64,000 bases of DNA, taken from a bacterium (GTDB taxonomy: Bacteria > UBA8248 > JACPRG01 > G963555815). The notes below the pieces were generated by a model. It was not told the DNA's origin. It did no database searches and saw only the letters and a list, made by a program, of their open reading frames with translations. Shown here piece by piece: positions 23,805-62,250 of the stretch. The stretch is from NCBI GenBank assembly GCA_965218795.1, contig OZ244653.1:1312001-1376000 (forward strand). Reading direction: 5' to 3'. Each line of letters starts with the position of its first letter. The stretch's first letter is position 1. The translations under genes were made by a program, and so were the position numbers.

Positions 23805-25160
23805 ATGACCATTGACTTGCGAAGCTTCCTCGAAGAAGCGGAACGCCGGGCGGACGGCGATTTCATCCGGGTGAAGCGGGAGATCTCCCGTGATTACGAG
23901 CTGGCCGGCGTAGTCGCCAAACTCGAGGCCGAGCGCCGCGTCCCCATTCTGATGTTCGAAAACGTTCAGGGAGCGGACTTTCCCGCGGTTGTCAACGTTT
24001 TGGGCTCGCGGTCGCGTATCGCGTCCAGTCTCGGAATCACGTCCAAGGAGCTTCTTCCCCGATTCCATGCAGCGGTCGATTCCCCCATTCCCCCCAAGGA
24101 GGTCGAGAACGCGCCGGTGCAGGAGAAAGTCATCGAAGGGGGAGACGTCGATCTGGGCCGCCTGCCGCTCATGCGCTATCACGACACCGACGCCGCCCCG
24201 TACCTGACGGCCGGAATCGTCATCGCCAAAGATCCCGAACGCGGGGAGTACAACCTGAGCTTCAACCGGTTGATGCTCAAGGACCGCAACCGTCTCGGGA
24301 TCTTCATGACCGTGGGAAAGCATCTGCACGAGATGTACAGCCGGATGGAGGAACAGGGCAAACCGCTGCCGATTGCCGTGTCCATCGGAAATCATCCGGC
24401 CTGGGCGGTGGGGACCTGCTACATCGGACCCTATCAGGTCGATGAACTGGGCGTCATCGGCGGGCTGATGGGAAGCCCGCTGGAGATGGTCCGCGCCCGG
24501 ACGGCGGACCTTCTCGTCCCGGCACGCGCCGAGATCGTCCTGGAAGGTGAAATCGAGCCGTTCACCCGTGAAATCGAGGGGTCCTTCGCCGAGTTCCACG
24601 GCTACGCCACGGAACCGAGGGAGCGGCAGGTCGTGCGCGTCAAGGCCGTGACTCACCGGGAGGGCGCAATTTATCAGGACCTGGTGGGGGGCGCCCACAG
24701 GGAGCATCTGGTCCTGCCCACAATCCCCATGGAAGCCAACGTGGACCGGGCGGTCCGGGCGGCGGTCCCTTCAATGGCCGCCCTACGGATCGCGGCGCCT
24801 TTCGTCCTGGCGGTTTCCATCAAAAAGCGGTTTCCCGGCCAGCCCAAGACCGCGGCCCTGGCCGCCTTCGCGGCCGAGATGTATCTGAAGCAGGTCATCG
24901 TCGTGGACGAAGATATCGACGTGAGCGATCTGTCCCGGGTCGTCTGGGCCATGGCAACGCGGTGCCAGTGGAGCCGCGACACGTTCGTTATCCCCGACGC
25001 GCCGGGCTCGTCGCTGGATCCGTCCGCCCTGACCGAGGGACTGGTCGACAAGGTGGGGATTGACGCCACGGCAAAGCCGACGCTCGAAAGCTTCGCGCCC
25101 CGCGGGCAGATCCCTTCGGACGTATTATCCCGCCTGAATCTGGACGATTACCTGTCCTGA
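23805..25160 (+). CDS. UbiD-family prFMN-dependent decarboxylase
   Basis: DLRSFL, VPARAEIVLEG, EGSFAEFHGY, VVDEDID, SLDPS, GIDAT. Confidence 0.92.
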   Translation: MTIDLRSFLEEAERRADGDFIRVKREISRDYELAGVVAKLEAERRVPILMFENVQGADFPAVVNVLGSRSRIASSLGITSKELLPRFHAAVDSPIPPKEVENAPVQEKVIEGGDVDLGRLPLMRYHDTDAAPYLTAGIVIAKDPERGEYNLSFNRLMLKDRNRLGIFMTVGKHLHEMYSRMEEQGKPLPIAVSIGNHPAWAVGTCYIGPYQVDELGVIGGLMGSPLEMVRARTADLLVPARAEIVLEGEIEPFTREIEGSFAEFHGYATEPRERQVVRVKAVTHREGAIYQDLVGGAHREHLVLPTIPMEANVDRAVRAAVPSMAALRIAAPFVLAVSIKKRFPGQPKTAALAAFAAEMYLKQVIVVDEDIDVSDLSRVVWAMATRCQWSRDTFVIPDAPGSSLDPSALTEGLVDKVGIDATAKPTLESFAPRGQIPSDVLSRLNLDDYLS

Positions 25161-25173
25161 CCTCGCGGTGATG
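25092..25173 (+). repeat. Direct repeat copy 1 (3' end of ubiD)
   Basis: 77/82 nt identical to 26261-26342 by manual alignment. Confidence 0.95.
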
Positions 25174-25332
25174 CCCAAAATCCATAGGGAAAGAAAATCG
25201 TGTCCCCAGAATCCCCTATAATGACGTTCAGAAGCTGCGCGACGGGTTGGAAACCCGCCTGCTTCAAAAGTCGGCGAAGCGTAGTGGGCAGTAGCCTGTC
25301 AAGGGAACCGGACAGACGGGTAGGGCTATGGC

Positions 25333-25458
25333 ATGGGAAGGAAAACCATTATCGCAATGACTGGATCACTGTTGATGGCCGCTGCCCTGGTGGGCTGCGC
25401 CAACTTGCAAACTGTTGGAAGAACCGCGCCGGCCTGCGGCCCGCCTGCAGGTCGGTGA
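25333..25458 (+). CDS. Small or truncated lipoprotein (41 aa)
   Basis: MGRKTIIAMTGSLLMAAALVGC is a lipoprotein signal with an LVGC lipobox. Confidence 0.5.
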   Translation: MGRKTIIAMTGSLLMAAALVGCANLQTVGRTAPACGPPAGR

Positions 25459-25589
25459 TGGACGCGAGCGGGTTTCTGTCGATACTCGATTGCCACGACA
25501 CACGGGACGCCGCGTTGGCGGCACTGTCCTGAACCTTCTCGAAACCGCTGGCCGCGGCCAGCCTTGCTCATGACCACGGAGCCTGTCCC

Positions 25590-26243
25590 ATGCTGACGTT
25601 CGCCGAAGAAATCCTGGTGCTTCTGCTGCACGATGAAAACGGCGCGTTCCTGCCCGTCAAGGGATACGCCATGAACCACGCCCTGGCCGGCTCGGTTCTG
25701 ATGGATCTGGCGTTCGCCAACCGGATCGACACCGATCCCGAGCAGTTGATGGTCATCGACCGCGCGCCCACGGGCAACCCCATGCTCGATCGCGTTCTGG
25801 ATCGGGTCGCGGACTGCGCGGAGACGAGGAACACCAAGGCATGGCTCGCGACGTTCTCCGCCGCGGCCGAGGCCGCGACCATCCGGGAGCTCGCGTTAGC
25901 CAGCCTGGTGGAGCGCGGCATCCTGGAGCGCCGGGAGGAGAAGTTCCTGTGGGTGTTCCGAACCCGGCGCTATCCGATGATCGACGGGAAGGTCGAACGC
26001 GAGGCCAAGAGGCGCATCGCGGGCGTACTGTTCTCCGACGAGATTCCCGACCCCAGGGACGTCGCCCTGATCTGTCTGGCCGAGGCGTGCGACATCCTGA
26101 ACGCCGTGTTCGGGAAAAAGGAAATGAAGCGCAGCAGGCCCCGCATCGTTCAACTGCTCAAGATGGATCTGATCGGACGCGAAATGGCCGGCGCGATCGC
26201 CGACATCCACCACACGATCCTGTCCGCCAGCGCGTTGCAGTAG
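25590..26243 (+). CDS. GPP34 (GOLPH3/Vps74-like) family protein
   Basis: MLTFAEEILVLLLHD, LAGSVLMDLA, LVERGIL..EEKFLWVF.TRRYP. Confidence 0.85.
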   Translation: MLTFAEEILVLLLHDENGAFLPVKGYAMNHALAGSVLMDLAFANRIDTDPEQLMVIDRAPTGNPMLDRVLDRVADCAETRNTKAWLATFSAAAEAATIRELALASLVERGILERREEKFLWVFRTRRYPMIDGKVEREAKRRIAGVLFSDEIPDPRDVALICLAEACDILNAVFGKKEMKRSRPRIVQLLKMDLIGREMAGAIADIHHTILSASALQ

Positions 26244-26260
26244 TGAGGCCGGCCGCGGGT

Positions 26261-26342
26261 TTCGCGCCCCGCGGGCAGATCCCTTCGGACGTATTATCCC
26301 GCCTGAACTTGGACGATTACCTGTCCTAGCCTCACGGTGATG
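26261..26342 (+). repeat. Direct repeat copy 2 (displaced ubiD 3' end)
   Basis: Encodes the identical FAPRGQIPSDVLSRLNLDDYLS* peptide. Confidence 0.95.
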
Positions 26343-26996
26343 GCCGGAATCCATCAGGAAGGGTCATTCACGGGGACCGGCCATCGGAAGGAGCCACCCG
26401 TTCCCCTCGATCCCGGCCTGCGCGGACGCTCTGGATCCCTGCTGCAGCCTGTCCTCGAACGTCTTCATCGGGGGCGGGAATCCAGGCAAGCCGAATCAAT
26501 ACTCATCAGAAAAAGGCCATGCACGCCTCTTGCAACGCCTTTGCACGGCCGTTTCCAGACCTTTTCATGATGCGTTTTCAGGGGGGATTCGGGCCGGCCC
26601 GCCACTTGTAATTCCACCCTGTCTGCGTGCGACGCACAGGCAGGTCGAAGCGGGAATGACCGAGAGCCTGCTCCTGCATGGTTTCGGCAGGGGGCGCCGG
26701 AATCCGACAAATCATTTATGAAGGAGGGTGTTCCGAGACTCGTCATTAGCCTTGTTTCCATGCTATTCTGCACATCTTAAGGAGGACGTCACGGGTAGAA
26801 CCATGTCGCAGTTTGCAGGCGAAAAGCATCGCCAAATTAGCGGCGCTTGCACGGTCTGGCTCTCCGGGTCACCTATCTTTTGTATTGCCCTCTTGCTTAG
26901 ACCAAGCTCGTGGTAGCCCTTCGGGCTTCGCCAGTTTCGAAATCGGCCGATGTTATGTGCTACAGTACCGTTCTACAGCACTCCGAGGACTAAGCC

Positions 26997-28001
26997 GTGG
27001 ACCGTGTTGAATACGAATCCTTAATTATCCAAGACTTGATCGGTTACCATGAGCGTGGTGAACTCAATATCGCTCCCTGGTATCAACGTAGATCCGTTTG
27101 GTCGCAACCACAAAAGGCATATCTAATTAACACCATACATGAAAACAAGCCTGTACCATCAATCTACATTCGCCATGCCGTAGACTTTCAAACGGAGAAA
27201 AGCATAAAGGAAATTGTTGACGGCCAACAACGTGTCCGCTGTGTAATAGAGTACAAAGGTAATAAATTTCCAGCGAGACACTCCAAACATGAAAACCCTG
27301 TCTATTATTCGGATCTCTCACGGAATGAACGAGTTCATTTCCTTCAGTCGACCTTATCGGTGGGCTACCTTGTTGGTGCAACAGACCCTGATGTGATCGA
27401 AATATTTGCACGGATAAACACAGTTTCAAAAACCTTGAATCCACAAGAAAAGAGGAACGCAAACTATAGTGGCGCATTTAAGCAATTCTGTCTCTCTGAG
27501 GCAGTAGAGCGACTGCCATTCTGGCGTGAAAATGGGATATTCACCGACAACCAGATCTCCAGAATGCTTGAAGTGCAGTTTGTTTCAGATTTGATAATAA
27601 ATCTTTTAGAAGGCCTACAGGATTTTTCTTCGAAAAAGATCAATGATTACTATGGAGAACACGAGAATAACTTTCCAAAGTCTTTAGAAACAAAGAAGAA
27701 GCTTGATCGTATATACACGACTTTACTTAACATGCCGGAGGGTCTCATAAAAGGCACCATATTCTCAACACCGCAACTTCTTTTTAGCCTGATCCTTGTG
27801 CTTGATTCAAAAACGCGCTTAAAACCGATAGTGATTTGCGAAGGTATCAACGATCTGGACGCCAGAGTCGAAGCAGTACGGTCTGGTGAAAATTCTCAGG
27901 CGCTTAAGACGGATATCTATGACGCCTTCACCTCTGGAAACTTACATCGAATTCGATCTCGTAAGCTAAGGGATAGAGAGATAAAAGCCTTCCTTAGTTG
28001 A
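26997..28001 (+). CDS. DUF262 (GmrSD/ParB-Srx-like) domain protein
   Basis: PWYQRRSVW, IVDGQQR, IFARIN..LNPQEKRNA; visibly AT-rich. Confidence 0.88.
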   Translation: MDRVEYESLIIQDLIGYHERGELNIAPWYQRRSVWSQPQKAYLINTIHENKPVPSIYIRHAVDFQTEKSIKEIVDGQQRVRCVIEYKGNKFPARHSKHENPVYYSDLSRNERVHFLQSTLSVGYLVGATDPDVIEIFARINTVSKTLNPQEKRNANYSGAFKQFCLSEAVERLPFWRENGIFTDNQISRMLEVQFVSDLIINLLEGLQDFSSKKINDYYGEHENNFPKSLETKKKLDRIYTTLLNMPEGLIKGTIFSTPQLLFSLILVLDSKTRLKPIVICEGINDLDARVEAVRSGENSQALKTDIYDAFTSGNLHRIRSRKLRDREIKAFLS

Positions 28002-28004
28002 ACA

Positions 28005-28619
28005 ATGCCGAAACCCAACCTTTCAGTCGACTGGAGTAGGTTTCAGGATAAGAGTGCTCGGTTGAAAGCACTTGTTTCCTCATTGAAACCCCTCTCCTTG
28101 AATCATCGTAAGCTCGTTGCAGAGATTGTGATGATTCGTCTTTTTCTTCTTTGTGAAAACACTGTTGCGTCTATTTGTACGAAGCTGCTTTGCGGCGCTG
28201 ACTATATTGACGGCAGTTCTCCCAAGAGAATCGTTTCTGCTTCCTCGAAGTCTAATGCGGAGACATTGATGAAAAAATATAAGAGGAAAAGGCCGAAACT
28301 GCACCTGTCTTGGACACGATCCAAAGAAATCAGAGACAACCTGAAAAACACTCTGCAGTCAGCCGACCCGCTCTTCCTAGTTGTAAGGAATCATGGTTCT
28401 ATACTAACGGAAATGAGATATGTCCGAAATCACATTGCACATAATAGCAAATCATCCCGGTCGGACTTCAGGAAAGTCGTACGCAGTTATTATGGTGGAT
28501 TGAAACAAGGTGTCACTCCAGGTCTTCTTCTGCTAACCGACGCGCTAGCGTCTCCGCCACTTGTGGAAAAATACCTCGTTTTCTATCGGCTTCTTATCAA
28601 AGAATTAGTACGCGCGTAG
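28005..28619 (+). CDS. Putative HEPN-domain RNase
   Basis: Rx4H motif RNHIAH; helical-looking and basic; starts 3 nt after the DUF262 gene. Confidence 0.7.
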   Translation: MPKPNLSVDWSRFQDKSARLKALVSSLKPLSLNHRKLVAEIVMIRLFLLCENTVASICTKLLCGADYIDGSSPKRIVSASSKSNAETLMKKYKRKRPKLHLSWTRSKEIRDNLKNTLQSADPLFLVVRNHGSILTEMRYVRNHIAHNSKSSRSDFRKVVRSYYGGLKQGVTPGLLLLTDALASPPLVEKYLVFYRLLIKELVRA

Positions 28620-28656
28620 GCACACAAACGTCAAACCGGAAATTGAGGTCTCTATC

Positions 28657-28940
28657 TGTACAGATAGGGTATTCCCCTGACAGCCGCCGCTCCTGTATGG
28701 GTTCAGTTTAGGCGGCTTTTTTCATTTTTTCCTCCTTTGGCGTTTTCGGTTTTGGCAGACAGCGGATGAAGACGAGGCAGGTGTCCTTCCCTTCATGCTG
28801 TGACCCTGATAGGGCCTTTTGGTGGTGCAGGTGATCAGATAGGCGTCAAGGTCGTTCTGCATGGCTTCGATGCTGTCGTAGAACTTCTTTCTTCCAATGA
28901 CGCGGAAGTGCTCGTCAAGCAACGTTCTGTGCAGCCGCCC
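28657..28940 (-). mobile_element. IS481-family remnant (transposase C-terminus plus right end)
   Basis: LDEHFRV.GRKKFY..IEAMQ.DLDAYL...RPYQG..MKGRTP; end TGTCAGGGGAATACCCTATCTGTACA. Confidence 0.78.
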
Positions 28941-29065
28941 AAGACGTTTGCCGCAGGGGAATTCTGAAAAGACTTGAGGAGAATAGAGAGCCGGACTGGA
29001 ACGAGATGATATTGGGGGCCGAGGTCGACTAGACTGCCTATCGCGGGCGGACCAGCCAGAGCCGC

Positions 29066-30034
29066 TCAGGAAGATTCATCGAGCGAGCGGCGGAGGGTGG
29101 CGGTCAACTGTTGGCGGAAACCCTCATCGTCACCCCTCGACCAGGGAACGGTCGTGCAGTGGTTGGTGTCGAAGTGGGTCTTTTCCTTATCAAACTTTCC
29201 CTTTTCGCAGATGTAGATGACGGGCTTGCCCAGCCCCTCCGCGTAACCGGCCTCCCAATAAGCCCCTGAATTGTCGTGCGTTAGATCGGCGATGACGAAC
29301 TTTGCGTCCCTGATCCGGGTACGCATTATGTTGTCGATTAACCCTGCGCGTGCAACATCGCGCATATCGACAAGGTCATAGCCGACATCCTCCTTCACCG
29401 CCGGTTTCAGGACTTCCTTGACTAAGGCTTCAAGTCTGGGTTTGTTAAACTGCATGGCAATGAACCCATAATTTCCCGCGAATTTGCCACGCTTCTCGTC
29501 TTCGTACCGTTTCCATCCGTCGAGGGTGAGGTTGATTTGAGATGGATTGGCGCCATTCTTATTCCCAATCATGAGTTGTCCGCGTTTGTCCAACTCCTTT
29601 ACCAGTTGAACACTCATCAAACGGTGAGGTGCGCCGATGATCGCCTGGAAATCGACAGGGAGTCGATCAACCGCTCTACCTGTACGGGATACTTCATCGC
29701 CAATAAACCGTATGATGTTTGTGGCCTGTACGATGGGGCTGGGAAGGAGGTGAGCGCCCGCCAGAAAATGATCCAACCATTCAGTCGTTATCAAAACAGT
29801 TTCTCCATCTCGCGATTTTATGCGCAATCGGTGAGAGAGGGACGCCCGCTGAACCGGCGTCAAACATTCTTTCGCAGGATTAAGTTTGCCAGCAAAGGCT
29901 GTCCTACTGATCTCGTACCGTCCGCATACAACGCATTCGAATCCGAAGGAATCCTTGCCGTTCGTCGAAAGCTTTTGGCACTGACCGCCGCCATCAATAT
30001 TCCGGCAGACGGGGCATTTAACCATGTCATTCAT
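29066..30034 (-). CDS. Zn-ribbon plus nucleoside 2-deoxyribosyltransferase/TIR-like domain protein
   Basis: CPVC...CVVC at the N-terminus; FIAMQF, IADLT..NSGAYWEAGYA.GLGKPVIY, HFD. Confidence 0.75.
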   Translation of the reverse strand: MNDMVKCPVCRNIDGGGQCQKLSTNGKDSFGFECVVCGRYEISRTAFAGKLNPAKECLTPVQRASLSHRLRIKSRDGETVLITTEWLDHFLAGAHLLPSPIVQATNIIRFIGDEVSRTGRAVDRLPVDFQAIIGAPHRLMSVQLVKELDKRGQLMIGNKNGANPSQINLTLDGWKRYEDEKRGKFAGNYGFIAMQFNKPRLEALVKEVLKPAVKEDVGYDLVDMRDVARAGLIDNIMRTRIRDAKFVIADLTHDNSGAYWEAGYAEGLGKPVIYICEKGKFDKEKTHFDTNHCTTVPWSRGDDEGFRQQLTATLRRSLDESS

Positions 30035-30059
30035 GGTGTCTCCTTTCGTTCAGATCGGT

Positions 30060-32903: not shown

Positions 32904-33143
32904 GGCATCGGCCGCAAGGGCGCATCGCAGCCGGGGCGCCTGTCCGCCGGCCAGGCAGGCTGTCCGTCCATCGCGAACCCACGGCCTGTCGACCCCTCAT
33001 GTGGTTACAAAGCCCCCGGAAAAGCCGCTTGTTACGCTGTTTCCAGGCTACCAAGGCCAGAAAGCGGCGGTCGGATTTGTGACGAGAAAGCAGCATTTGA
33101 AACGCATCCTTGCAGCGCGCGCCGACGGCACCCACCGCCACTT

Positions 33144-33195
33144 TTCCACGGTATTCCACGGTATTCCACGGTATTCCACGGATAACCACGGTATT
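33144..33195. repeat. 10-bp tandem repeat (TTCCACGGTA, about 5 copies)
   Basis: ttccacggta ttccacggta ttccacggta ttccacggat aaccacggta. Confidence 0.92.
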
Positions 33196-33301
33196 TTCGG
33201 CCCTACAGTTGTTTATCTACCTCTTCACCGATCCTGCTGACGGTTTTCGCAACGGACGAAGTCCCCGGACATCAGGGTACTGAAACCCAAAGGGCGTCCG
33301 C

Positions 33302-34315
33302 TCAGAGTCCCAGCAAGCCCTTTGCCGTGCCGCCCAGGATCATGGCCTTGTCGTCCGCGGACAGGGAGGTGGCTTCGATGCTGGAGACGGCGCGGGAGAG
33401 ATCTCCGCTCAGAAACGGGTAGTCGCTCCCCAGCAGCAAATGGTCGGCGCCCGCAAAGGCGTGTGCGCACTCGACCGCCGGGGGATAGAACGACACGGTA
33501 TCCCAATAGAGGAGCTTGAAGTACTCGCCGGGCTTTTTGGGGATGCTCTTCTGAACCTCGGGGAATCGGCATCCCCGCTCCAGCCGATCAGCCAGGAACG
33601 GAACGGCCCCGCCCAGATGATTGAAGATCAGTTTCAGGTTCGGGTGCTCCTCGAGGAGCCCGTCGAAGACGAGGGTCGTCGCCACCAGGGTCGTTTCGAA
33701 CATGAAGCCGACCAGGGCCGCCAGGTGGAACCGCTCCAGGGCGGGATTGGGCTCCGCGTTGAGCGGGTGGATGAAGACGGGCCGGTCGAGCGCCTCCGCC
33801 TCGGCAAAGAAGGGCCGGAAACGACGGTCGCTCAGGTTGACGCCGTCAACGTTGGTGAAGGTCGAAAACCCCTTCAGTCCGAGCTCACCGACCGAGCGGC
33901 GCATCTCCTCCCGGGCGGCGTCCATGTCCTTCAGGAAAACCGAACCGAATCCCGCGAAGCGGTCGGGTCGCCGCCGGACCATCTCGGCGATATCGTCGTT
34001 GATGGCCCGCATGAGGGGAACGCCGTCCTCCGGCTCGAAGAGGTCGATGCTGGGATTGCCCATCGTCAACACCTGGAGGTCGAAGTTCGCCGCGTCCATG
34101 TGGGCCAGGCGGGGGCCCGGATCAATCCCCGTGGCCGAGATGGGGCCGAAGTCGAACCCTCGGTGGTAAAAACGGATGCGGCCGTCATCATCCTCTTCCA
34201 GGCGAAGACCGTAGCGCTCCTGCTTGTTTTTGAGCGTTTCCAAATAGACCATCGGATAGACGTGGGAGTGGAAATCGATATTCACGGTCAAGCTCCGTTC
34301 AAGTGTCTCTGTCAT
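33302..34315 (-). CDS. Amidohydrolase-2 family (ACMSD-like decarboxylase/hydrolase)
   Basis: IDFHSH, FIHP, HLGG.VPF, LLGSDYP. Confidence 0.88.
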   Translation of the reverse strand: MTETLERSLTVNIDFHSHVYPMVYLETLKNKQERYGLRLEEDDDGRIRFYHRGFDFGPISATGIDPGPRLAHMDAANFDLQVLTMGNPSIDLFEPEDGVPLMRAINDDIAEMVRRRPDRFAGFGSVFLKDMDAAREEMRRSVGELGLKGFSTFTNVDGVNLSDRRFRPFFAEAEALDRPVFIHPLNAEPNPALERFHLAALVGFMFETTLVATTLVFDGLLEEHPNLKLIFNHLGGAVPFLADRLERGCRFPEVQKSIPKKPGEYFKLLYWDTVSFYPPAVECAHAFAGADHLLLGSDYPFLSGDLSRAVSSIEATSLSADDKAMILGGTAKGLLGL

Positions 34316-35244: not shown

Positions 35245-35245
35245 C

Positions 35246-44256: not shown

Positions 44257-44284
44257 CGACTCATTACCTCCCAACTACAGAAGC

Positions 44285-50079: not shown

Positions 50080-50824
50080 AGGACCACCTGTTCCCTTCGC
50101 GATAAGAAATCTCTATGTAGGATTGTCATCATGGGTCAGTATGTACCAAAGCGGCACAAACTGTTTTCAATGGAAAATGCCCATTTCAAGTGTCGGACAG
50201 GCTTGTACCCATCACTCGTTACTGTTCAGCCAGATTAGACTTCTCTCTACTGAACCTGTCAACGCCTTCTCGAGCGCCCGAAACCGTCATCGGAGCGGTG
50301 TATTTGATTGAATACGGCGCCACCCCTCAGGGTAGCCGAGCCTTGCCCGCAGACCCACCGAAGACAAAATGCTGAATGACCGGAATTCCCCATATTGCCC
50401 TGTAAGATTCGCCTTCCGGTCCATCTTGCCGATGGAATCAAATTGAAACCATCCCCTTCCTCCTCTGAAAGTTCTCCAACCCGACGGAATGGTAGCCTGA
50501 TGGGCTTTGCGCGTGCGGAAATAACTGCCCCTCGACTCTCGGTCGCCTTGGCCCGCAATCCAACCCGATAAACATACAACTTTCTGCCAGCGAGTAACCC
50601 TATGGGAGGGAGAACGTCCATCCGGGCACCCGAGCCTTCAATGCCTGACCCTTCTTTGCGCTTCAGCCAAGATGCTGGAATATAATGCCTGATGTATTTT
50701 CGCCCCCCCTTGGTGGAGCGGAAATCTCTGGCTGACATCTTGGCATTCAGAGTGGCTTACCCGGAAGGCTCCCGGACAAGTGCCGGCGGAGACACCCGGG
50801 AAGGAATTTCCAAAGGCGCTCCAG

Positions 50825-53119: not shown

Positions 53120-53136
53120 CCTTCGTAGCTTCCTTA

Positions 53137-53282: not shown

Positions 53283-56200
53283 ATGAGCGGAACGGACACG
53301 AAACTGACGGCCGCGGTGGAGACCTACTTCACCGATCTCGGACGGGTGCGCGCGTCGGGCGGCGCGACCGGGGAGCGGTCGAGCTACGGGCCGCTCGCCA
53401 ACCTGCTCAACGCCGTGGGCGCGACGCTCAAGCCAAAAGTGTTCTGCGTGGGCGAGTTGGTCGATCAGGGCGCGGGCCACCCCGACTTCGGCCTCTATGC
53501 GGCGAAGCAGGTGCAGAAGGGCCGGCCCCGGGAAGGCCAGATCCCCGAACGCGGCGTCGTCGAGGTGAAGTCCGCGGATGACGACGCCTGGCTCACGGCA
53601 ACGGGCGATCAGGTGAGCAAGTATTGGAACCGCTACCACCTCGTGCTGGTCACCAACACGCGCGACTTCGTTCTGGTGGGCGAGGACGCGGCGGGCCGCC
53701 CTTCGAGGCTGGAGACCTTCCGGCTGGCGGACAGCACGGACGACTTCTGGCGCAAGCTGGAGAAGCCGCGCGTCTTCACCCGCGAAGTCGGCGCAGGTTT
53801 GGGCGAGTATCTTTGCCGGGCCCTCTCACACCGGGCCGCGCTCGCCGAACCCAAGGACCTGGCCTGGCTCCTCGCTTCCTACGCGAGAGACGCCCTCTTT
53901 CGTGTCGAGGCCGCAGGCGATGCGCCGTCGCTCGAGACGGTGCGCTCTTCCCTTGAGGAAGCCCTGGGCGTCCGCTTCGAGGGCGAGCGTGGCGCGGCCT
54001 TCTTCCGTTCGACCCTGGTGCAGACCCTTTTCTACGGCGTGTTCTCCGCCTGGGTGCTCTGGGCGCGGCAATTGCTGCCGCCTAAAGGCGATTTCAACTG
54101 GCATGAAGCGGTCTGGCACCTGCGCGCGCCGGTCCTGCGGGCGCTGTTCCAGCAACTGTCCGATCCCGGCCGCTTGCAACCGCTGGGCCTCGTCGAAGTC
54201 CTGGACTGGACTTCTGCCGCGCTCGACCGCGTGGACCGGGCCGCCTTCTTCGCCCGTTTCAACGAGGGGGAGGCGGTGCCCTATTTCTACGAGCCGTTCC
54301 TGGAAGCCTTCGACCCCGAGCTCCGCAAGCAGCTCGGCGTCTGGTACACCCCAACGGAAGTGGTGCGCTACATGGTCGCCCGCGTGGACAAGGCGCTGAA
54401 GGACGACCTCGACATACCGGACGGGCTCGCCGCGGAGAACGTCTACGTCCTCGATCCCTGCTGCGGCACCGGGGCCTATCTCGCAGAAGTCCTGCGCCGA
54501 ATCGCCGCCAATCTGCAAGGCCGGGGCATGGGCGCGCTCGCCGGCGCGCGGGTGAAGCAGGCGGCCTTGAAGCGCGTGTTCGGCTTCGAGATCATGCCCG
54601 CGCCGTTCGTCGTGGCCCACTTGCAGGTCGGCTTGACCATGCAGGACCTCGACGCCCGGCTGGCCGAGGATGAACGCCCCGGCGTCTTCCTCACCAACGC
54701 GCTCACCGGCTGGGAGCCGCGAACGACCAAGCCCTTGCCCTTCCCCGAGTTGGAGGAAGAACGCGACCGGGCGGAGCAAGTGAAGCAGGAGACGCCCATC
54801 CTCGTGATCCTCGGCAACCCGCCCTACAACAGTTTCGCCGGCATGGCGGTGGGCGAGGAGCGGGAGCTTTCGGAAGCCTACCGGACGACAAGACGGGTAC
54901 GCCGTCCCGAAGGCCAGGGGCTGAACGATCTCTACGTCCGTTTCTTCCGCATGGCGGAGCGGCGCATTGCGGAGAAGACGGGCCGAGGCGTGGTCTGCTT
55001 CATCTCCAACTACTCCTGGCTCGACGGCCTGTCCTTCACCGGGATGCGGGAGCGGTATCTTGAGGCGTTCGACGCGGTGCGGATCGACAATCTGCACGGC
55101 GACCGTATCGTCTCGGAATACGCGCCCGACGGGCGGACCAGCGAAACGGTCTTCGCGCTTCGGGGACAATCGCCGGGTATCAAGGTCGGTACAAGCATCG
55201 CCCTATTTTCGAGATCCGGGACCGTCGCGGATATATCGACGGGCGGGCGCATCCTGTACCGCGATTTCCATCAGGCAAGAGCCGATGAAAGACGGCAAGC
55301 GCTGTTGGACAGTCTCGACGCTCCCGCAATCGATGCGGGCTACTCGGCATTGGAGCCCAATCTTCGCCTCGGCTTGCCGTTCAAGCCAACCGCGGTGAGC
55401 GAGGGCTGGTTCGACTGGCCGGCCCTGCCTGAGTTGTTCCCGGTGTCGTTTCCCGGAGTTCAGACCAGCCGCGACGGGTTCCTCGTGGATGTCGATCTCG
55501 ACCGGCTGCGAAAGCGTGTAAGCGACTACTTTGACGCTGGCCTGAGCCATGAGGAAATCGCGAGACGCTATCCGGCGGTAATGAAGGCGACGGCGCGGTT
55601 CGACGCCCGAACGGTGCGGGACGTGCTGCTGAAACGCGGTGGACCGGATGAATCCGGCTTCGTCCGCTTCGCTTACCGGCCATTCGATTGCCGTTGGCTC
55701 TATTGGGAGCAGGACACGAAACTTCTCGATGAGAAGCGCGCCGACTACAGGCCCCATGTGTTCGAGGGGAATATGTGGCTGTCCGCCGCGCAGCACCTGC
55801 GGAAGGGCGCGGGAGAACCGCAATCGTGTTTCACGCAGCATATCGGTGCGCGGCATCTGATCGAGCGCGGCGCCAATTGGTTCCCCGCTTGGCTTCGCGC
55901 AGACGCCCTGGACGCGCCGGACTCCGGCCGTCGCCCGAATCTTTCGGAAGCCGCGCAACGCTGGCTCAACCGTTTGGGGCTCAACGTGGAAGACCTGTTC
56001 CATCACGTCCTTGCCGTGCTCCACGATCCCGCCTACCGAGAGGCCAACGCCAGCGCGCTCCGCATGGAATGGCCGCGCATCCCCCTTCCCGGCTGGCCCG
56101 ACGGCGAGGCCGACGGCGGGGCCGGCGACGCGCTTGGGACGGAAGGACCGCTCCCCCGCTTCCGGGCTCTCTCTCCCTCTGGAGGGAGGGAAAATGAGAA

Positions 56201-56816
56201 CCCCTCTCCCGATGGGAGAGGGGAAGGGGTGAGGGCTCGTGAGGAGCGGCATAGGGAGCGCCAGCCCCTCCCGGAGAGAGGGGCTGCTGCGTCTGACAGC
56301 GCGGCGGAAGCGCTCTCCCGATCGGCGGCGCGGGGACGCGAGCTCGCCCGGCTGCTCGACCCCGACACGCCCGTTCCGGGCGTCACGGCAGCCCCATTGC
56401 GGCCTGAGATCGCCGCTGTCGCCGTACCCGCCACGACGGAGGGGCGCAACATGAGGGATGACGACTTCGCCCTCACCGCCGGATGGGGTCATTACGGAAC
56501 AGGCGATGCCGTGATGCCCGGCCAGGGCCGGGTTGTCGAGCGGGCCTATACGCCGGACGAACGCGCCGCCCTGGGCGAAGCCTTGCCCGCTCTCGGCAAG
56601 ACCACCTTCGACATCCACCTGAACGCCCGCGCCTTCTGGCGCAACGTCCCCGCCGCGGTCTGGGGCTACAGGCTCGGCGGCTACCAGGTCCTCAAGAAAT
56701 GGCTCTCCTACCGGGAGCGCGGCATCCTCGACCGGCCCCTCGCGCCCGAGGAAGTCCAGCACTTCACGGACACGGCGAGGCGGATTGGGGCGATCCTGTT
56801 GAGGACCGTTCGATGA
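53283..56816 (+). CDS. Type IIG-like R-M fusion with Type ISP-like C-terminal specificity domain
   Basis: HPDF..VEVK nuclease motif, GVWYTP, LDPCCGTG, GNPPY, YRPFD, YRLGGYQVLKKWL.YR; no helicase motifs seen. Confidence 0.9.
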   Translation: MSGTDTKLTAAVETYFTDLGRVRASGGATGERSSYGPLANLLNAVGATLKPKVFCVGELVDQGAGHPDFGLYAAKQVQKGRPREGQIPERGVVEVKSADDDAWLTATGDQVSKYWNRYHLVLVTNTRDFVLVGEDAAGRPSRLETFRLADSTDDFWRKLEKPRVFTREVGAGLGEYLCRALSHRAALAEPKDLAWLLASYARDALFRVEAAGDAPSLETVRSSLEEALGVRFEGERGAAFFRSTLVQTLFYGVFSAWVLWARQLLPPKGDFNWHEAVWHLRAPVLRALFQQLSDPGRLQPLGLVEVLDWTSAALDRVDRAAFFARFNEGEAVPYFYEPFLEAFDPELRKQLGVWYTPTEVVRYMVARVDKALKDDLDIPDGLAAENVYVLDPCCGTGAYLAEVLRRIAANLQGRGMGALAGARVKQAALKRVFGFEIMPAPFVVAHLQVGLTMQDLDARLAEDERPGVFLTNALTGWEPRTTKPLPFPELEEERDRAEQVKQETPILVILGNPPYNSFAGMAVGEERELSEAYRTTRRVRRPEGQGLNDLYVRFFRMAERRIAEKTGRGVVCFISNYSWLDGLSFTGMRERYLEAFDAVRIDNLHGDRIVSEYAPDGRTSETVFALRGQSPGIKVGTSIALFSRSGTVADISTGGRILYRDFHQARADERRQALLDSLDAPAIDAGYSALEPNLRLGLPFKPTAVSEGWFDWPALPELFPVSFPGVQTSRDGFLVDVDLDRLRKRVSDYFDAGLSHEEIARRYPAVMKATARFDARTVRDVLLKRGGPDESGFVRFAYRPFDCRWLYWEQDTKLLDEKRADYRPHVFEGNMWLSAAQHLRKGAGEPQSCFTQHIGARHLIERGANWFPAWLRADALDAPDSGRRPNLSEAAQRWLNRLGLNVEDLFHHVLAVLHDPAYREANASALRMEWPRIPLPGWPDGEADGGAGDALGTEGPLPRFRALSPSGGRENENPSPDGRGEGVRAREERHRERQPLPERGAAASDSAAEALSRSAARGRELARLLDPDTPVPGVTAAPLRPEIAAVAVPATTEGRNMRDDDFALTAGWGHYGTGDAVMPGQGRVVERAYTPDERAALGEALPALGKTTFDIHLNARAFWRNVPAAVWGYRLGGYQVLKKWLSYRERGILDRPLAPEEVQHFTDTARRIGAILLRTVR

Positions 56817-57806
56817 AATTCAAGGATTGGTTGCGCCTGCCGCTGCTCATCCGCCGCGTGACCGGTCGGGATGCGTTCCGGTGGATGACCGGGATAGCGA
56901 TCGTACTGGCGACCGGCATCTTTTTCTCCTGGCGTTATTGGGGAGAGTTGCACGGGGATCAGGAATCGCTCAGCACGACTGTCCGCAATGTGGGCGTCGT
57001 GATCGGTGGCGTCATTGCAATACTGCTCGCTGTCTGGCGCGGCACGGTGGCGGACCGTCAGGCGAAGGCGGGGCAGCGGCAGTCCGAAACAGCGCAGCAG
57101 GGCCTGTCGAACGAACGCTACCAGAAGGGCGCGGAGATGATCGGCAGCGGCGTTCTCTCGGTCCGTCTGGGCGGCGTCTACGCCCTGCAACGTCTGGCCG
57201 AGGAGCATCCCAAGCAATACCACGTCCAGATCATGCGTCTGTTCTGCGCCTTCGCGCGCCACCCAACCGAGGACAGCGAGGAAAAAACCAAACAAGTCGG
57301 ACAGCCTGACTCCGAAACAAAACCGCTGCCCCGCCCGGATATTCAGGCGATCATGGAGGCTATTAGAGACCGCAGAGAGGCAGCCGTTGCTCTTGAAAAG
57401 CAAGATGGCTTTAAGTGGAATCTTGTGTCGGTCAATTTGAGTGGATCGCACCTCGCAAACATAGACTTTAGTCTGGGCGCGGCTTTGGAAAGCGAACCTA
57501 TCCGACGCGGTCCTCATAGCGGCAGACATGTCCGGTGCGGTTCTCAATGGAGCAAACCTATCCAACGCAAACCTCGTGAGTGCAAACCTGAATCTTGCGC
57601 GCCTTGATGGAGCAAACCTATCCAGGGCGTGGATTATAGACGCTAACCTGACCGGTGCGAACCTGTCCAACGTAACCGGACTGATGCAGCAGCAACTCAA
57701 TGAAGCCCGCGCCTATCCCGATTAACCGCCCAGGTTGGACGGCGCTCTTGCCGCCGAGACTGGCAAACCGCTGGTCTGGCGCGGCAAGCCGCCCGACGAC
57801 GAATAG
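56813..57806 (+). pseudogene. Membrane-anchored pentapeptide-repeat protein, frameshifted near 57493 with a stop at 57723
   Basis: ERYQKGAEMIG..VRLGGVYAL; ANLS/ANLT repeats in a second frame; tail GKPLVWRGKP after an in-frame TAA. Confidence 0.78.
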
Positions 57807-57834
57807 ACGCGCGGGGCGACGCATTTTGATTGAT

Positions 57835-57915
57835 GCGATGTTCGCCATCACCCCCGCGATAACCCTCTCCACACGCTCGGCCGCCTCGACGAGGTGGCCG
57901 TCGGCGTAGCGGATC
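57835..57915 (-). pseudogene. C-terminal remnant of a tyrosine integrase
   Basis: RYADGHLVEAAERVERVIAGVM resembles RYAHLARDSVQEAAERIAGSIA of the integrase at 2735-3969. Confidence 0.55.
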
Positions 57916-58243
57916 AAAAACAGTTGAGAATGGCCTGGAAAATCCGGGGGATTTCCGGGGCGAAACGGCCCGGGAATCGCCCCTGAGAGGGGGCGTGCAT
58001 CGACGTTGCTCGATGCCGGCGGTGGCCGATCTGCTGTATCGAACCAGGGGCGAGTTCTCGCCCATTAGGGGGGAAAGCCCGGATATCCTGACGCGGAATC
58101 CGTACTCAATCAATATGTTTCAATGGGTTCGTTTCATGTATAAAGTCTGAATCCATGCGGATTGCGTCCATCTCCGACAACCTGGCGAGAGGACTCCCCT
58201 TCTGTCGCCGCCTCGGCCGGGGTGACTCAGAGAGAACCCATTC

Positions 58244-59113: not shown

Positions 59114-59446
59114 AAGGCATGCCATCCAAGGTCAGTCCGCCGCTCTCATGGACTCTGCAAAGGCCGTGGGATTGCCGTGCGATGGTCGGTCGTCGCACCA
59201 GAAAGAAAGGAGAGGGAGCGTCATGGGCGGTCCAGTCGCCCGAACCTCGGGGGTTTGTCCGAATTCGACAGTTGATTGTTGACGCCATCTTGTCTTCTAT
59301 GCGAAAGTGCCTTGAATTCCATTGAGCCAATTCCAAAGGAACGGGACTGAAGCGGCGTGGTTGTTTGGATATCTCGCCTGGCTGGGGGACGGCGCCGGAA
59401 TTTCCAGCCCATGGTTCAACGAATCCAAGCCTTGGAGGAAAAAACG

Positions 59447-60487: not shown

Positions 60488-60693
60488 TCCGGCCGCCGGT
60501 TTTGCTGAAACTGTCAAAGGCTCCCGGAACCCGGTGCGCCGTCCGACCGGTGCGGGCGAAAGCCTGCATTGGAGTTCCCGACCGCTTCCCAGCGTCGTGA
60601 CGAATCGCGCGATGTGAAACGAATCTGAGCGACAGCGGGCCGGCCATTCGTCGGGAGAAGGCGCTGCGGCCCATGCCCCGAAGGAGGGCTATC

Positions 60694-61965
60694 GTGAAAA
60701 CCAAACGGGTTCGATCCGGTGCGCCCCAGCCGGTGGCCTACTATTCCGAGGCCATGACAGCCGGTCCCCTGGTATTCGCCGCCGGACAGATCGCCAGCGA
60801 TTTTACAACCGGCATTCCTCCGGAAGCCCGTGTAGATCCCGCCTTTCCCTACTACGGCTCCGACATCAAGCGACAGACCGAATACATCCTCAAGACCGTG
60901 TCGAAAACCTTCGAGGCGGCCGGGACATCCCTCGACAACGTGATCAAAGCCCAGGTCTTCCTCCCCGACCTCAACCATTTCTTCGCCTTCGACGAGGTCT
61001 GGAAAGAATTCTTCAAAATGCCGCCCCCGCGCACGACGGTCGGGACAACGGGCCTCCTCGCGCCGGGTTGTCTCGTCGAGATCGATCTTATCGCCTATCG
61101 TCCCCGTCCAGGGTGGAAGCACGAGGTGGTTCGATCGAAAGCGCCCCGGCCCCTCGCCAACTACTCCGAGGCCTTCCGGGTGGGAGACTTCGTCTTCGCC
61201 GCGGGGCAGGTCGCCAGCGACTACCGGACCGGCATCCCGCCCGAAGCCGGGGTAGACCCCGCCTTTCCCTACTACGGCTCCGACATCAAGCGGCAGACCG
61301 AATACATCCTCAACAACCTCTCCAAGACCTTCGAGGCGGCCGGGACCTCGCTCGACCATGTGGTCAAGGCCCAGGTCTTCCTCACCGACCTCGACCATTT
61401 CTTCGCCTTCGACGAGGTCTGGAAAGAATTCTTCAAAATGCCGCCCCCGCGCACGACGGTCGGGACGACAGGCCTTTTGGTGCCGGGCTGTCTGGTCGAA
61501 ATCGACCTCATCGCTTACGTTCCTCGAAAGGGGTTAAAACGCGAGGTGGTTCGATCGAAAGCGCCCCGGCCCCTCGCCAACTACTCCGAGGCCTTCCGGG
61601 TGGGAGACTTCGTCTTCGCCGCGGGGCAGGTCGCCAGCGACTACCAGACCGGCATCCCGCCCGAAGCCGGGGTAGACCCCGCCTTTCCCTACTACGGCTC
61701 CGACATCAAGCGTCAGACCGAATACATCTTCAACAACCTCTCCAAGACCTTCGAAGCGGCCGGGACCTCGCTCGACCATGTAGTCAAGGCCCAGGTCTTC
61801 CTGGCCGACGACGAGTTGGAGGGGCTTTACTCGAAGGCGGCCGCCCGGGATGAGGTTTGGCGAAGCTTCTTCAAGACACCGCCCCCGCGCACGACGGTCG
61901 GGACGACGGGTCTGCTGGTGCCCGGGAGCTTGATCGAGATCGACCTGATCGGCGTTATGGGTTGA
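60694..61965 (+). CDS. Triple tandem RidA (YjgF/UK114) domain protein
   Basis: Three ~140-aa units, each with YSEA, AGQ, PPRTTV and EIDLI; 420-bp DNA period. Confidence 0.92.
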   Translation: MKTKRVRSGAPQPVAYYSEAMTAGPLVFAAGQIASDFTTGIPPEARVDPAFPYYGSDIKRQTEYILKTVSKTFEAAGTSLDNVIKAQVFLPDLNHFFAFDEVWKEFFKMPPPRTTVGTTGLLAPGCLVEIDLIAYRPRPGWKHEVVRSKAPRPLANYSEAFRVGDFVFAAGQVASDYRTGIPPEAGVDPAFPYYGSDIKRQTEYILNNLSKTFEAAGTSLDHVVKAQVFLTDLDHFFAFDEVWKEFFKMPPPRTTVGTTGLLVPGCLVEIDLIAYVPRKGLKREVVRSKAPRPLANYSEAFRVGDFVFAAGQVASDYQTGIPPEAGVDPAFPYYGSDIKRQTEYIFNNLSKTFEAAGTSLDHVVKAQVFLADDELEGLYSKAAARDEVWRSFFKTPPPRTTVGTTGLLVPGSLIEIDLIGVMG

Positions 61966-61993
61966 GAAGAGATTCTCTCTTCGCTCGATCCTG

Positions 61994-62250
61994 CTACGGA
62001 TTCGCGGGTTTCCTTGGCTCGACGATTTCCAAGACCTTCTCGGGCGTGAACGGAAGAGTTTTGAGTAGGCGCCCGAGGGCCGGGAAGGTTCTCTTCACCT
62101 TGCGCGAGGGAATTTGGCCCTCGTAGCTTCCTTCAGTCGGCCGTTGACCGGATTGCGAATCGTCTCGAACGGTTCTCATCCTGAAGGCAGGTAGGAGGCT
62201 GGTGACCTTTTCCATGACATTTTCCGGCGTGAACGGGAGGAGTCTCCCGC
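61994..62250. repeat. Cluster of three XDH-like gene 3'-end fragments
   Basis: 62081-62133 matches 53083-53135 at 48/53 nt; minus-strand LPFTPEKV and LPFTPENV fragments flank it. Confidence 0.8.

Follow-up and report, generated by a model that had tools for sequence, protein, structure and literature searches.

Repeat pairs at the ends of a ubiD and an xdh gene: insertion scars of a known kind that recur in one bacterial genome

What brings small blocks of accessory DNA to lie between two copies of the end of one gene is the question raised by a 64-kb stretch (64,000 nucleotides, here called the window) of the 5.17-Mb genome of an uncultured bacterium, where the ends of a UbiD-family decarboxylase gene and of a xanthine-dehydrogenase-type (xdh) gene each occur twice, as direct repeats. 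An earlier note on this DNA had proposed that a trans-acting system may use conserved ends of paralogue-rich genes as landing pads for cargo. Both gene-end duplications that had been seen are real, their first copies spanning the stop codons of the two genes, and both blocks are a known kind of insertion scar, with about ten in this genome; nothing shows a special system that targets the ubiD or xdh families.

The first pair lies at the end of the UbiD-family gene (23679..25160, forward strand; Pfam UbiD, UbiD_C and UbiD_N). In a repeat search of the window, the gene-attached copy (25092..25191, forward strand) and the displaced copy (26261..26360, forward strand) were 90% identical over 100 nt, the former made up of 69 coding nucleotides, including the stop codon TGA, and a 31-nt trailer, and the latter encoding the same peptide with the stop codon TAG. 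By whole-genome BLAST, the copy with its flanks matched only its partner (E 7e-33), the remaining matches being of 36 nt or less, and each of the two pairs was found once in the genome, with no third copy. The flanks beyond both pairs agree at chance level (0.22–0.27 over 150 nt in register). The repeat-bounded ubiD unit totals 1169 nt, and its repeats enclose just 1.07 kb of accessory DNA (25192..26260, forward strand; 1069 nt), consisting of a 5'-truncated STAS-domain gene, of which the last 32 codons remain (about 25434–25532, forward strand), and a GPP34-family gene (25590–26243, forward strand; Pfam GPP34, 1e-46). The STAS remnant resembles, with 69% identity over 32 amino acids, the STAS gene upstream of GPP34 in 6/6 genus-g7 loci examined. 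No further copy of the ubiD end was found in 26361–33400, nor was a duplicated end of the neighbouring Amidohydro_2 gene (best matches 11–19 nt), and a 38-nt core of this repeat, sought as an exact match, was absent from the metagenome collection.

The 69 coding nucleotides of the two ubiD copies show two synonymous and no non-synonymous changes, with TGA vs. TAG as the stop codon, and the 31-nt trailer shows six differences. By our own arithmetic, such a pattern would have a chance below 1% under neutral decay of a spare ubiD copy, and, as far as the sequence can tell, the copies look like two diverged functional gene ends. The orthologues in the relatives G001, G003, G004, and G006 are 76–77% identical to this ubiD gene in nucleotides, and polarising the copy differences with these four outgroups was uninformative at 76% identity; likewise, the single ubiD end of G001 and G006, with Amidohydro_2 directly behind it, is at an identity (76%) too low to assign either copy to it.

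Most of the accessory DNA behind ubiD lies outside the repeat pair (26361..33301) and is absent between the flanking genes in G001 and G006. It comprises a MITE-like repeat split by 168 nt (26408–26741), with further copies in the genome, a GmrSD/NsnA-like defence gene (26997–28001; PADLOC, Pfam), an ORF (28005–28619), a TIR-like gene with a weak match (29066–30034, reverse strand; PADLOC), an MmeI-like type IIG restriction-modification (R-M) enzyme (30060–32903, reverse strand; PADLOC, Pfam), and a dispersed repeat, also with copies in the genome (32946–33228), the GC content at 27–30 kb of the window being 0.42–0.53. Then comes the Amidohydro_2 gene (33302..34315, reverse strand; Pfam and synteny), which relatives conserve as the neighbour to the right of ubiD and whose orthologue stands about 240–316 nt after ubiD in G001 and G006. 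Given that ubiD is directly followed by the amidohydrolase gene in these relatives, 25161–33301 is accessory DNA. At the same site, G004 carries another insert of about 13 kb, with chemotaxis genes and a Mutator-family transposase. The UbiD protein was found at 40 loci of the metagenome collection, and ATPase–ubiD synteny in one of them (contig L040, 81% identical), whose 985 nt of sequence past ubiD are different DNA; the remaining 39 reach no more than 58% identity and are not syntenic. The varied DNA found after ubiD in G001 and G006, in G004, and in the metagenome contig indicates that this site takes up DNA repeatedly, and the gap from ubiD to the amidohydrolase gene is a hot spot within the bacterial family. 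Both cases had been noted as standing next to defence genes; at xdh a type IIG gene is inside the repeat pair, and at ubiD the defence genes are all outside the repeat-bounded segment.

The second pair is found at the end of an xdh-type molybdopterin-binding subunit gene (50780..53119, forward strand; Pfam MoCoBD_1, MoCoBD_2 and Ald_Xan_dh_C), whose orthologues in G001, G003, and G004 are 78–80% identical in nucleotides and have a different neighbourhood in each. The gene-attached copy (53082..53135, forward strand) and the displaced copy (62080..62133, forward strand) were 91% identical over 54 nt in the repeat search of the window, and whole-genome BLAST with the flanks included returned the partner as the sole match of note (E 4e-15), the rest being of 36 nt or less; the repeat-bounded unit measures 8998 nt. 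Far from being a broken end, the displaced copy retains the ancestral stop, which comes three codons later, in a Trp-Pro-x-stop ending present in 3/3 orthologues (G001, G003, and G004), and it is the gene-attached copy that has a TAG stop where the orthologues have the Trp codon. An 18-nt identical stretch separates the differing sites into two groups: to its left lie three, at which the gene-attached copy is nearer to the outgroups (3/3 at two sites, 2/3 at the third), and to its right two, at which the displaced copy is nearer (to 3/3 in the Trp codon, and only to G001 at the remaining site). Such a mosaic would be expected after one crossover, and is only suggestive of it at a chance value of about 0.06–0.12; mutations acquired later by the individual copies can produce it as well.

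The first gene of the xdh cargo is a type IIG or type ISP-like R-M gene (53283..56816, forward strand; Pfam Type_ISP_C, N6_Mtase and Eco57I; PADLOC REase_MTase_IIG, 7e-91), followed by a stretch without a recognisable gene family (56817..58243; no Pfam, PADLOC, or PF00589 match), the ORFs at 56483–57607 on the forward strand and at 56708–57700, 57618–57917, and 57697–58113 on the reverse strand giving no Pfam or PADLOC match. Next come, all on the forward strand and assigned by Pfam, an EamA transporter gene (58244–59113), an NMT1/THI5-like gene (59357–60487), and a triple RidA fusion gene (60673–61965). The NMT1–RidA block (59274–61983) is 87–88% identical to G004 and G006 of genus g4, syntenic genes being 66–80% identical, and this part of the cargo is 2.1% diverged in the strain of runs X1 and X10 vs. 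about 0.55% in the flanks. With the truncated STAS gene and GPP34 on the ubiD side, the g4-like NMT1–RidA block, and this strain-divergent part, the cargo of the two units is patchwork DNA from elsewhere. An 80%-identical paralogue of the cargo type IIG gene adjoins two integrase genes at genome position 1885–1892 kb, all three being enclosed by a 39-nt repeat, and thus integrase-borne versions of such cargo exist in this genome.

Contigs of runs X6 and X9, possibly from the source sample, cover 51621–53369 and 61879/61978–64000 with no differences from the window, so both xdh copies are present in independent short-read assemblies, and the left xdh junction and cargo are carried by all four runs compared (contigs on 44001–64000). 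Among the contigs of these four runs, which by their nature drop rare forms and speak only for the parts that they cover, none joins across the xdh insert and none has an excision or circle joint at the xdh repeats. Joints at 53.4–57.8 kb fall within the type IIG gene, on which contigs of other organisms accumulate by the thousand, and the contigs of X1 and X10 depart from the window sequence between 62054 and 62284. No strain-level empty site for the xdh unit appeared in the four runs and no syntenic site in G001, G003, and G004, and neither an xdh remnant in the G000 gap where G004 carries xdh nor an internal xdh-end copy within the insert (best matches 11–19 nt) was found.

Neither pair encloses an integrase. 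A whole-genome profile scan gave 38 matches to PF00589 and none to PF00239, and in 25092–33301 and 53082–62133 it found no match to either family, with no recombinase gene or fragment; no transposase family was matched among the scanned ORFs of both inserts. Ends of RNA genes were also considered as the origin of the repeats and were ruled out because a tRNA/tmRNA scan of the 64-kb window found no genes and Rfam gave no match at gathering score. An intact integrase had been noted at 1539–2723, and there is, indeed, a tandem tyrosine-recombinase module on the forward strand (1392..3969; Pfam), with an intact-looking int1 (1392/1539–2723), which has a full-length catalytic-domain match in a single open frame, and a frameshifted int2 (2720–3969), which has its PF00589 matches in separate frames. 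Copies of this two-integrase module occur at at least nine other loci, with 84–90% identity and their own conserved ends, and around five full copies no direct repeat of 9 nt or more was found except for one chance 9-mer. The ubiD and xdh repeats, which had been said to share no obvious sequence, have no 8-mer in common on either strand and a single 7-mer on opposite strands, and either repeat has just one 8-mer in common with the module's ends, both at chance level.

The pattern itself recurs, as the earlier note had suspected, and the lack of further cases by which the note would have been refuted is not borne out. From 64 low-copy direct-repeat pairs, set against our own crude GC3-based gene prediction, 10 combined a copy lying over a predicted stop codon with an intergenic one, and looser ORF rules added two more. 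The displaced copy lay downstream of the gene in 8/10 pairs, a preference that is partly built in, given that a nearby upstream spare copy would fall inside the gene. About eight additional gene-end repeats of like build (63–423 nt, with 0.7–5.8 kb of cargo and no recombinase) stand behind a flavin reductase gene, a ComM/YifB-like gene, a type III methylase gene, a YHS-domain gene, and hypothetical genes; several units carry defence or addiction-type genes, and no scanned unit has a PF00589 or PF00239 match inside. The younger cases have near-identical copies (#44, 423/423 nt; #329, 74/76; #15, 181/186), and the ComM-like site, with a 1080-nt duplicate of 100% identity and two junctions with a common element-side arm, hints at recent activity. 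An all-against-all BLAST of 11 units found no common element beyond short dispersed repeats and no shared motif. Some pairs were dropped from the set, namely #103, whose ORF was spurious (the repeat is part of an 830-aa gene), #20, a piece of an aminotransferase gene flanked by two SDR genes, the IS-related #161, and, as paralogues or tandem arrays, #79, #156, and #213.

We give about an even chance to the reading that the repeat pairs are junctions left by reciprocal recombination with foreign DNA carrying a look-alike gene end. The incoming DNA, bearing a look-alike of the target gene's end and passing through a circular intermediate, would have recombined into the last codons of that gene by a single reciprocal (Campbell-type) crossover within the shared stretch; the insert would then lie behind a complete gene, the second gene-end copy would be pushed to its far side, and the repeat pair would be its two junctions. 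We infer both the crossover and the circular intermediate from the repeat pairs. Such insertions would survive because the target gene stays whole, and the inserts keep their junction repeats without a recombinase, which makes them akin to the CIMEs discussed below; the about eight like inserts behind unrelated genes point to a general mode of gene gain that is not aimed at ubiD or xdh paralogues. In favour of look-alike recombination are the unique, sharp-edged repeats that run across the stop codon, the spare copy being downstream. The silent-only coding differences at ubiD, the mosaic of the xdh copies, the repeated uptake of DNA behind ubiD, the patchwork cargo, the recurrence, and the integrase-borne paralogue of the type IIG gene also speak for it. 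In two cases, the copies look like alleles from different lineages. Against it, a strain-level empty site was seen for neither repeat-bounded unit, nor was a circular form, 0 of about ten units retain a piece of an integrase gene, a strange finding if they are decayed integrase islands, and the identical stretch of 18 nt in the xdh repeat is short for RecA-type recombination. As the maker of the crossover, a tyrosine integrase, either lost or acting in trans, and host homologous recombination are roughly evenly matched.

To our knowledge, the mechanism of the so-called insertion with long target duplication, reportedly introduced by Nobusato in 2000, has been open since that year. Applied here, it would mean that the DNA was inserted in place through widely staggered breaks or copying, so that both copies would be the recipient's own and would have drifted apart later, which we regard as rather unlikely. 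The build fits the published class, with inserts below 20 kb, repeats above 30 bp, and no mobility genes; an R-M gene stands at the edge of the xdh insert, stop-codon-spanning repeats are described as common in the parts of PMC2853133 used here, and the near-identical copies of #44, #329, and #15 also agree with it. However, the ubiD coding differences are all silent, the stop is kept, and 6/31 trailer positions differ, which is unlikely for an unselected spare copy, and the ubiD cargo has no R-M gene.

Homology-facilitated illegitimate recombination is a concept from Acinetobacter work. In this case, linear DNA of a related strain, homologous in the gene body, would have formed an illegitimate joint upstream of the recipient's gene end, and we hold this to be improbable; that the gene-attached copy is wholly donor DNA and the displaced copy recipient DNA is equally improbable. 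Neither a recombinase nor a circle is needed, and the silent-only ubiD differences, the truncated first cargo gene, and repeat lengths that change from case to case are all accounted for. However, by eye there is no clear microhomology at the displaced copies' left edge, and it would take a recipient-type strain to demonstrate a tract of donor DNA within the gene body.

Alternatively, the about ten units might be live recombinase-less cassettes whose gene-end copies recombine to give a circle with one copy that re-enters related cells, a quite unlikely state of affairs, with the ComM-like site as a hint of recent activity; re-entry at the same gene end through host recombination or the resident tandem integrases belongs to the same doubtful reading. 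If true, ordinary gene ends would form a distributed, integron-like capture system, by which defence and accessory genes would spread among co-resident strains.

The original proposal of a dedicated trans-acting recombinase, such as int1, with the ends of ubiD and xdh paralogues as cassette landing pads is very improbable. An intact-looking integrase of a multicopy module stands 21 kb away, both families are indeed very large (36 ubiD and 69 xdh-type loci), and with about ten cases and about 2.4% of genes in both families, two hits would have a chance of about 0.03 by our own post hoc arithmetic. Nevertheless, the paralogues are just 27–51% identical in protein and their ends are not conserved in DNA, either repeat belongs to a single gene, with no occurrence beyond its own pair, the repeats share no 8-mer with each other and one 8-mer each with the module ends, and the integrase modules have their own ends, without a gene-end repeat of 9 nt or more at the five copies checked. 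With about eight further scars behind unrelated genes and no common motif, the recurrence is real and the idea of paralogue-end landing pads is unsupported. Finally, that a second, nearly identical ubiD or xdh gene once stood downstream and was deleted down to the displaced copies is highly unlikely: the families are highly multicopy and tandem paralogues such as pair #156 occur in the genome, yet the similarity ends abruptly 17 nt past the GPP34 stop and 115 nt past the RidA stop, no other paralogue exceeds 51% protein identity, and relatives have a single ubiD at the site.

The closest known kinds for both units are the insertion with long target duplication, for which the parts of Furuta et al. 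(2010, PMC2853133) used here give inserts below 20 kb, direct repeats above 30 bp, and no mobility genes, and the CIMEs (cis-mobilizable elements), presented in the parts of Guedon et al. (2017, PMC5704250) used here as ICEs or IMEs in decay, with attL and attR retained and the integration and transfer genes lost. As in the former, our inserts are short (1169 and 8998 nt), the direct repeats are otherwise unique (100 and 54 nt), the scanned ORFs have no match to PF00589, PF00239, or a transposase family, the repeats span a stop codon where the published ones often span a start or stop codon, and the target gene is intact. An R-M gene at the edge of the xdh insert is a further likeness. On the other hand, the published copies, in the parts referred to, match the empty site almost perfectly, whereas ours are 9–10% apart, and the published cargo is essentially R-M, whereas the xdh unit combines a fused type IIG gene with four others and the ubiD unit has no R-M gene, the one at that site lying outside the repeat. 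As in CIMEs, so far as they are described there, the junction repeats are kept, as direct repeats spanning the stop codon and putative att sites, and integration and transfer genes are absent. Unlike what descent from an integrase-bearing ICE or IME would leave, no integrase-bearing relative with the same repeat exists in the genome, no conjugation or integration gene remains, and the repeats occur only as their own pairs, the pattern scan of the metagenome collection giving no match.

In ICEs and other genomic islands, a tyrosine integrase targets tRNA or protein genes at their 3' end, and the gene end is restored. Our units resemble them in the gene 3' end as target, the gene-end replacement, the diverged direct repeats, and the accessory and defence cargo, and differ in lacking the defining cis integrase (0/38 PF00589 matches and no PF00239 match in either insert), in their very small size (1.2 and 9.0 kb), and in the truncated chromosomal gene carried by the ubiD unit. 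With integron cassettes, they share the character of small, promoter-poor, recombinase-less units at a fixed place, the recombinase being encoded elsewhere; in contrast, no attC-like element or common attachment site is shared by the units (the BLAST of 11 units showed only short dispersed repeats), and a different gene is used each time. One complete genome with about ten scars of different ages, among them scars with non-R-M cargo and one kilobase-long duplicate of 100% identity, would be good ground for testing the mechanism of such scars, and, for annotation, accessory DNA has its borders marked by short orphan gene ends even without an integrase.

The earlier note had proposed that duplicated gene ends flank cargo at a ubiD and at an xdh gene, and both repeat pairs proved to be real and unique in the genome. 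In our repeat search of the window, the ubiD-end direct repeat (25092-25191 / 26261-26360) extends over 100 nt at 90% identity and the xdh-end direct repeat (53082-53135 / 62080-62133) over 54 nt at 91% identity, and in the whole genome, searched as a single contig of 5.17 Mb, each copy matches its partner only (E 7e-33 and 4e-15, respectively). The first copy of each pair contains the stop codon of its gene, a UbiD-family gene (23679-25160) in one case and an xdh-type molybdopterin-binding gene (50780-53119) in the other, and beyond both pairs the flanks are no more alike than by chance (0.22-0.27 identity over 150 nt). Both xdh copies were also recovered without differences in the short-read contigs of runs X6 and X9, which may represent the source sample. 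A tRNA scan and an Rfam search of the window found neither tRNA genes nor Rfam families, and the statement that neither repeat encloses an intact integrase was borne out by a whole-genome profile scan, in which none of the 38 PF00589 matches lies in the ubiD or xdh region and PF00239 has no match at all.

The pattern, for which a genome-wide scan had been suggested, does recur. A self-comparison of the genome, run on overlapping 140-kb pieces and taking pairs of 35-600 nt at ≥80% identity and 0.3-70 kb apart, yielded 358 direct-repeat pairs, 64 of them with three or fewer copies genome-wide. Judged by a crude, purpose-built, GC3-based set of 4343 genes, in 10 of the 64 low-copy pairs a stop codon lies within one copy and the other copy is intergenic, with the spare copy downstream of the gene in eight (#12, #15, #43, #44, ubiD, xdh, #135 and #329) and upstream in two (#154 and #168), a count that is biased because a close upstream spare copy would fall within the gene; looser ORF rules gave two further downstream cases (#133 and #220), and three low-copy pairs span gene starts. 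Flank identity is at chance in every pair examined (0.16-0.35), and no sequence is common to the units compared. The targets of the other cases are unrelated (flavin reductase, ComM/YifB-like, type III methylase, YHS-domain and hypothetical genes), and their cargo, 0.7-5.8 kb long and mostly below the genome in GC (0.51-0.59 vs. 0.605), includes a radical-SAM/SPASM gene and an M78/IrrE-like gene with CapP/RmrA-like matches, besides a ParE pair with an enoyl-CoA hydratase gene. Pair #168 (202 nt, 87%) encloses 63.6 kb, including a full-length integrase. In the case of the ComM/YifB-like gene, whose end occurs in three copies outside the window (genome 4552876-4589706), copies 1 and 3 run on into a 1080-nt duplicate that includes an enoyl-CoA hydratase gene and whose 100% identity points to a recent event; junctions 2 and 3 have a common 69-73-nt element-side arm (93% identity), and the 36 kb of this locus contain no recombinase genes.

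The idea that a trans-acting recombinase uses conserved ends of the ubiD and xdh paralogues as landing pads found no support and is very improbable: the paralogues are only 27-51% identical as proteins, and no third copy of either repeat exists in the genome; the paralogue gene ends match over short stretches only, at no more than 70-79%. Both families have undergone extreme expansion in this 5.17-Mb genome, with 36 UbiD-like loci and 69 loci of xdh-type (MoCoBD) genes, and the chance of 2 of ~10 cases falling in them is ~0.03 by post hoc arithmetic. The integrase that had been called intact, int1 (1392/1539-2723), does look so, and its tandem partner int2 (2720-3969) is frameshifted. Together they form a 2.6-kb module with P4-type arm-binding domains (window 1284-4971), found with a conserved left end and 84-90% identity at no fewer than nine other loci (e.g., genome 1835897-1838464, 2010139-2012722, 476293-478863 and 4772004-4774363), and its copies appear to form a family of integrative elements. 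Often, 3' of the module and after 0.7-6 kb of variable DNA, there is a sharply ending 358-nt repeat of ~10 copies, related to the end of an IS3-type rve_3 transposase. Flanking repeats of ≥9 nt were absent around the five module copies checked, and the module has only single 8-mers in common with the ubiD and xdh repeats. One module copy abuts a type IIG gene fragment.

The origin of the repeats can be judged from the differences between copies. Between the two ubiD ends there are 10 differing sites, all of them beyond nt 47: the 69 coding nt hold two synonymous changes, no replacements and a stop codon changed from TGA to TAG, and six sites differ in the 31-nt trailer. An unselected spare copy should gain mostly replacements and lose its stop, a drift that by our own estimate would give this pattern with a chance of <1%, which argues that the copies diverged as working gene ends; judging from these sites, they would have done so in different lineages, each ending a working gene. 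The xdh orthologues of three relatives (G001, G003 and G004) all end in Trp-Pro-x-stop, as does the displaced copy, and the gene-attached copy has TAG at their Trp codon position. On the left side of this repeat, the gene-attached copy is nearer to these outgroups at the three differing sites (3/3 at two, 2/3 at the third), on the right side the displaced copy is nearer at two (3/3 at the Trp site and 1/3, namely G001, at the second), and an identical 18-nt stretch lies in between. This is precisely what one reciprocal crossover between the host xdh end and a look-alike would leave, although later mutations arising independently in the copies could also yield it (chance ~0.06-0.12).

We give an even chance to Campbell-type insertion, in which the incoming DNA supplied its own gene-end copy and both repeat pairs are the resulting junctions; the inserts now lack a recombinase. 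The crossover would have been made by an integrase or by host recombination, and we hold these about equally probable: the units may descend from integrase islands, but none of the ~10 units keeps an integrase fragment, and RecA may have acted, but only a short run is identical between the xdh copies. Guedon et al. (PMC5704250) describe CIMEs as elements without integration and transfer genes that retain attL and attR, and also the stacking of elements at a gene end. Two rival readings are less probable but keep some weight: a long target duplication formed in place, and homologous recombination on one side with an illegitimate joint on the other. Furuta, Abe and Kobayashi (PMC2853133) report R-M genes whose insertion came with long and variable duplication of the target and with no mobility genes, the repeats often lying across a start or stop codon so that the gene is kept intact. 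The ubiD/xdh case is a further instance of an already described kind of insertion, notable for the number of cases within one genome, for cargo that goes beyond R-M genes and for copies that have diverged like alleles.

The ubiD pair encloses 1069 nt only, where the final 32 codons of a STAS-domain gene precede a GPP34-family gene (25590-26243); all six loci examined from genus g7 have an entire STAS gene immediately upstream of GPP34, and this cargo is therefore a fragment torn from some chromosome and not a tidy element. In G001, of the same genus, and in G006, the order is P-type ATPase, ubiD and, ~240-316 nt on, the Amidohydro_2 orthologue, so that window 25161-33301 (8.1 kb) is demonstrably accessory. 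The defence genes noted beside the inserts are real at both sites according to PADLOC, but those at ubiD all lie outside the repeat pair, beyond its second copy: a GmrSD/NsnA-like gene (26997-28001), a weak TIR-like match (29066-30034) and an MmeI-like type IIG enzyme (30060-32903), in a stretch where GC falls to 42-53% and dispersed short repeats are many. At the ubiD site, G004 has another insert of ~13 kb (CheA, CheW, MCP, CheR, kinases and a Mutator-family transposase), around which the ubiD-end repeat is absent, and L040, the sole syntenic metagenome contig (UbiD 81% identical), has different DNA in the 985 nt available past ubiD; the gap between ubiD and the amidohydrolase gene is a hot spot in this bacterial family. 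Nearby, a dispersed repeat of ~150 nt (some 25-30 copies, unbroken elsewhere) is interrupted (26408-26481 and 26650-26741) by a 168-nt insertion. Window 28653-28938 (286 nt), with no Rfam match and no open frame spanning it, recurs at genome 171132-171411 (88%) and 3487492-3487663 (78%), and G004, G020 and G030, of other genera and families, have matches of 70-80%.

The xdh pair encloses 8944 nt, in which a type IIG/ISP-like R-M gene (53283-56816) is followed by 1.4 kb of no recognisable family, an EamA transporter gene, an NMT1-like gene and a triple RidA fusion. The xdh orthologues in G001, G003 and G004 have different neighbours in each, and none of the three offers an empty site comparable to that of ubiD. 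A history of its own is hinted at for this cargo: identity of the NMT1-RidA block to genus g4 is 87-88%, against 66-80% for syntenic genes, the strain of runs X1/X10 diverges by 2.1% over 58011-60867 vs. 0.54-0.61% in the flanks, and the type IIG gene has a paralogue (80% identity) that adjoins two integrase genes, with a 39-nt repeat bracketing these three. The X1/X10 contigs depart from the window sequence at 62054-62284, the site of the displaced xdh copy. Just left of the window, the genome under study has two adjacent genes whose orthologues enclose xdh in G004, and G001 is without yet another gene of that row. This tightly packed row (genome 1308699-1313099, at the window's left edge), compared with G001:C1 and G004:C5, has 0, 1 or 2 extra genes between two constant neighbours, reading A-AMP ligase in G001, A-B-AMP ligase here and A-B-xdh-AMP ligase in G004, which shows gain or loss of single genes with clean joints; individual catabolic genes turn over in this bacterial family.

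The type IIG family is hugely abundant and diverse in the sampled runs: over window 53339-57340, summed contig depth rises in all four runs up to 300-500x the flanks (4,700-7,200 vs. ~15), with thousands of contigs matching the gene region at 90-99% identity, and six short fragments of the gene lie elsewhere in the genome. The RidA gene (60673-61965) has three tandem RidA/L-PSP domains in 420-nt internal repeats, 71-90% identical; the triple fusion also occurs in G004 and G006, and a 72-75% paralogue lies at genome 4479288-4480510.

Two more genes of defence or addiction type, HEPN (pEK499_p136 family; 43795-44274, minus strand) and HicB antitoxin (47463-47888, minus strand), lie outside both inserts. 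Genes for an ABC ATPase and a solute-binding protein (36370-38586, minus strand) seem split over several frames and may be pseudogenes; the orthologous stretch of G006 aligns across them at 79%. Three dispersed repeat families (13385-13607, 32946-33228 and 57845-58035; ~40, 17 and 10 copies), scattered in the window, form contiguous rows at other loci, arranged as 57.9k-type, 13.4k-type (often tandem) and 33k-type (e.g., genome 118676-119615 and 1051037-1051971). A 5.1-kb operon for a branched-chain-type ABC transporter (5074-10197), which in the window begins right after the 358-nt repeat, is duplicated in inverted orientation 1.4 Mb away (genome 2719216-2724339) at 99.96% identity.
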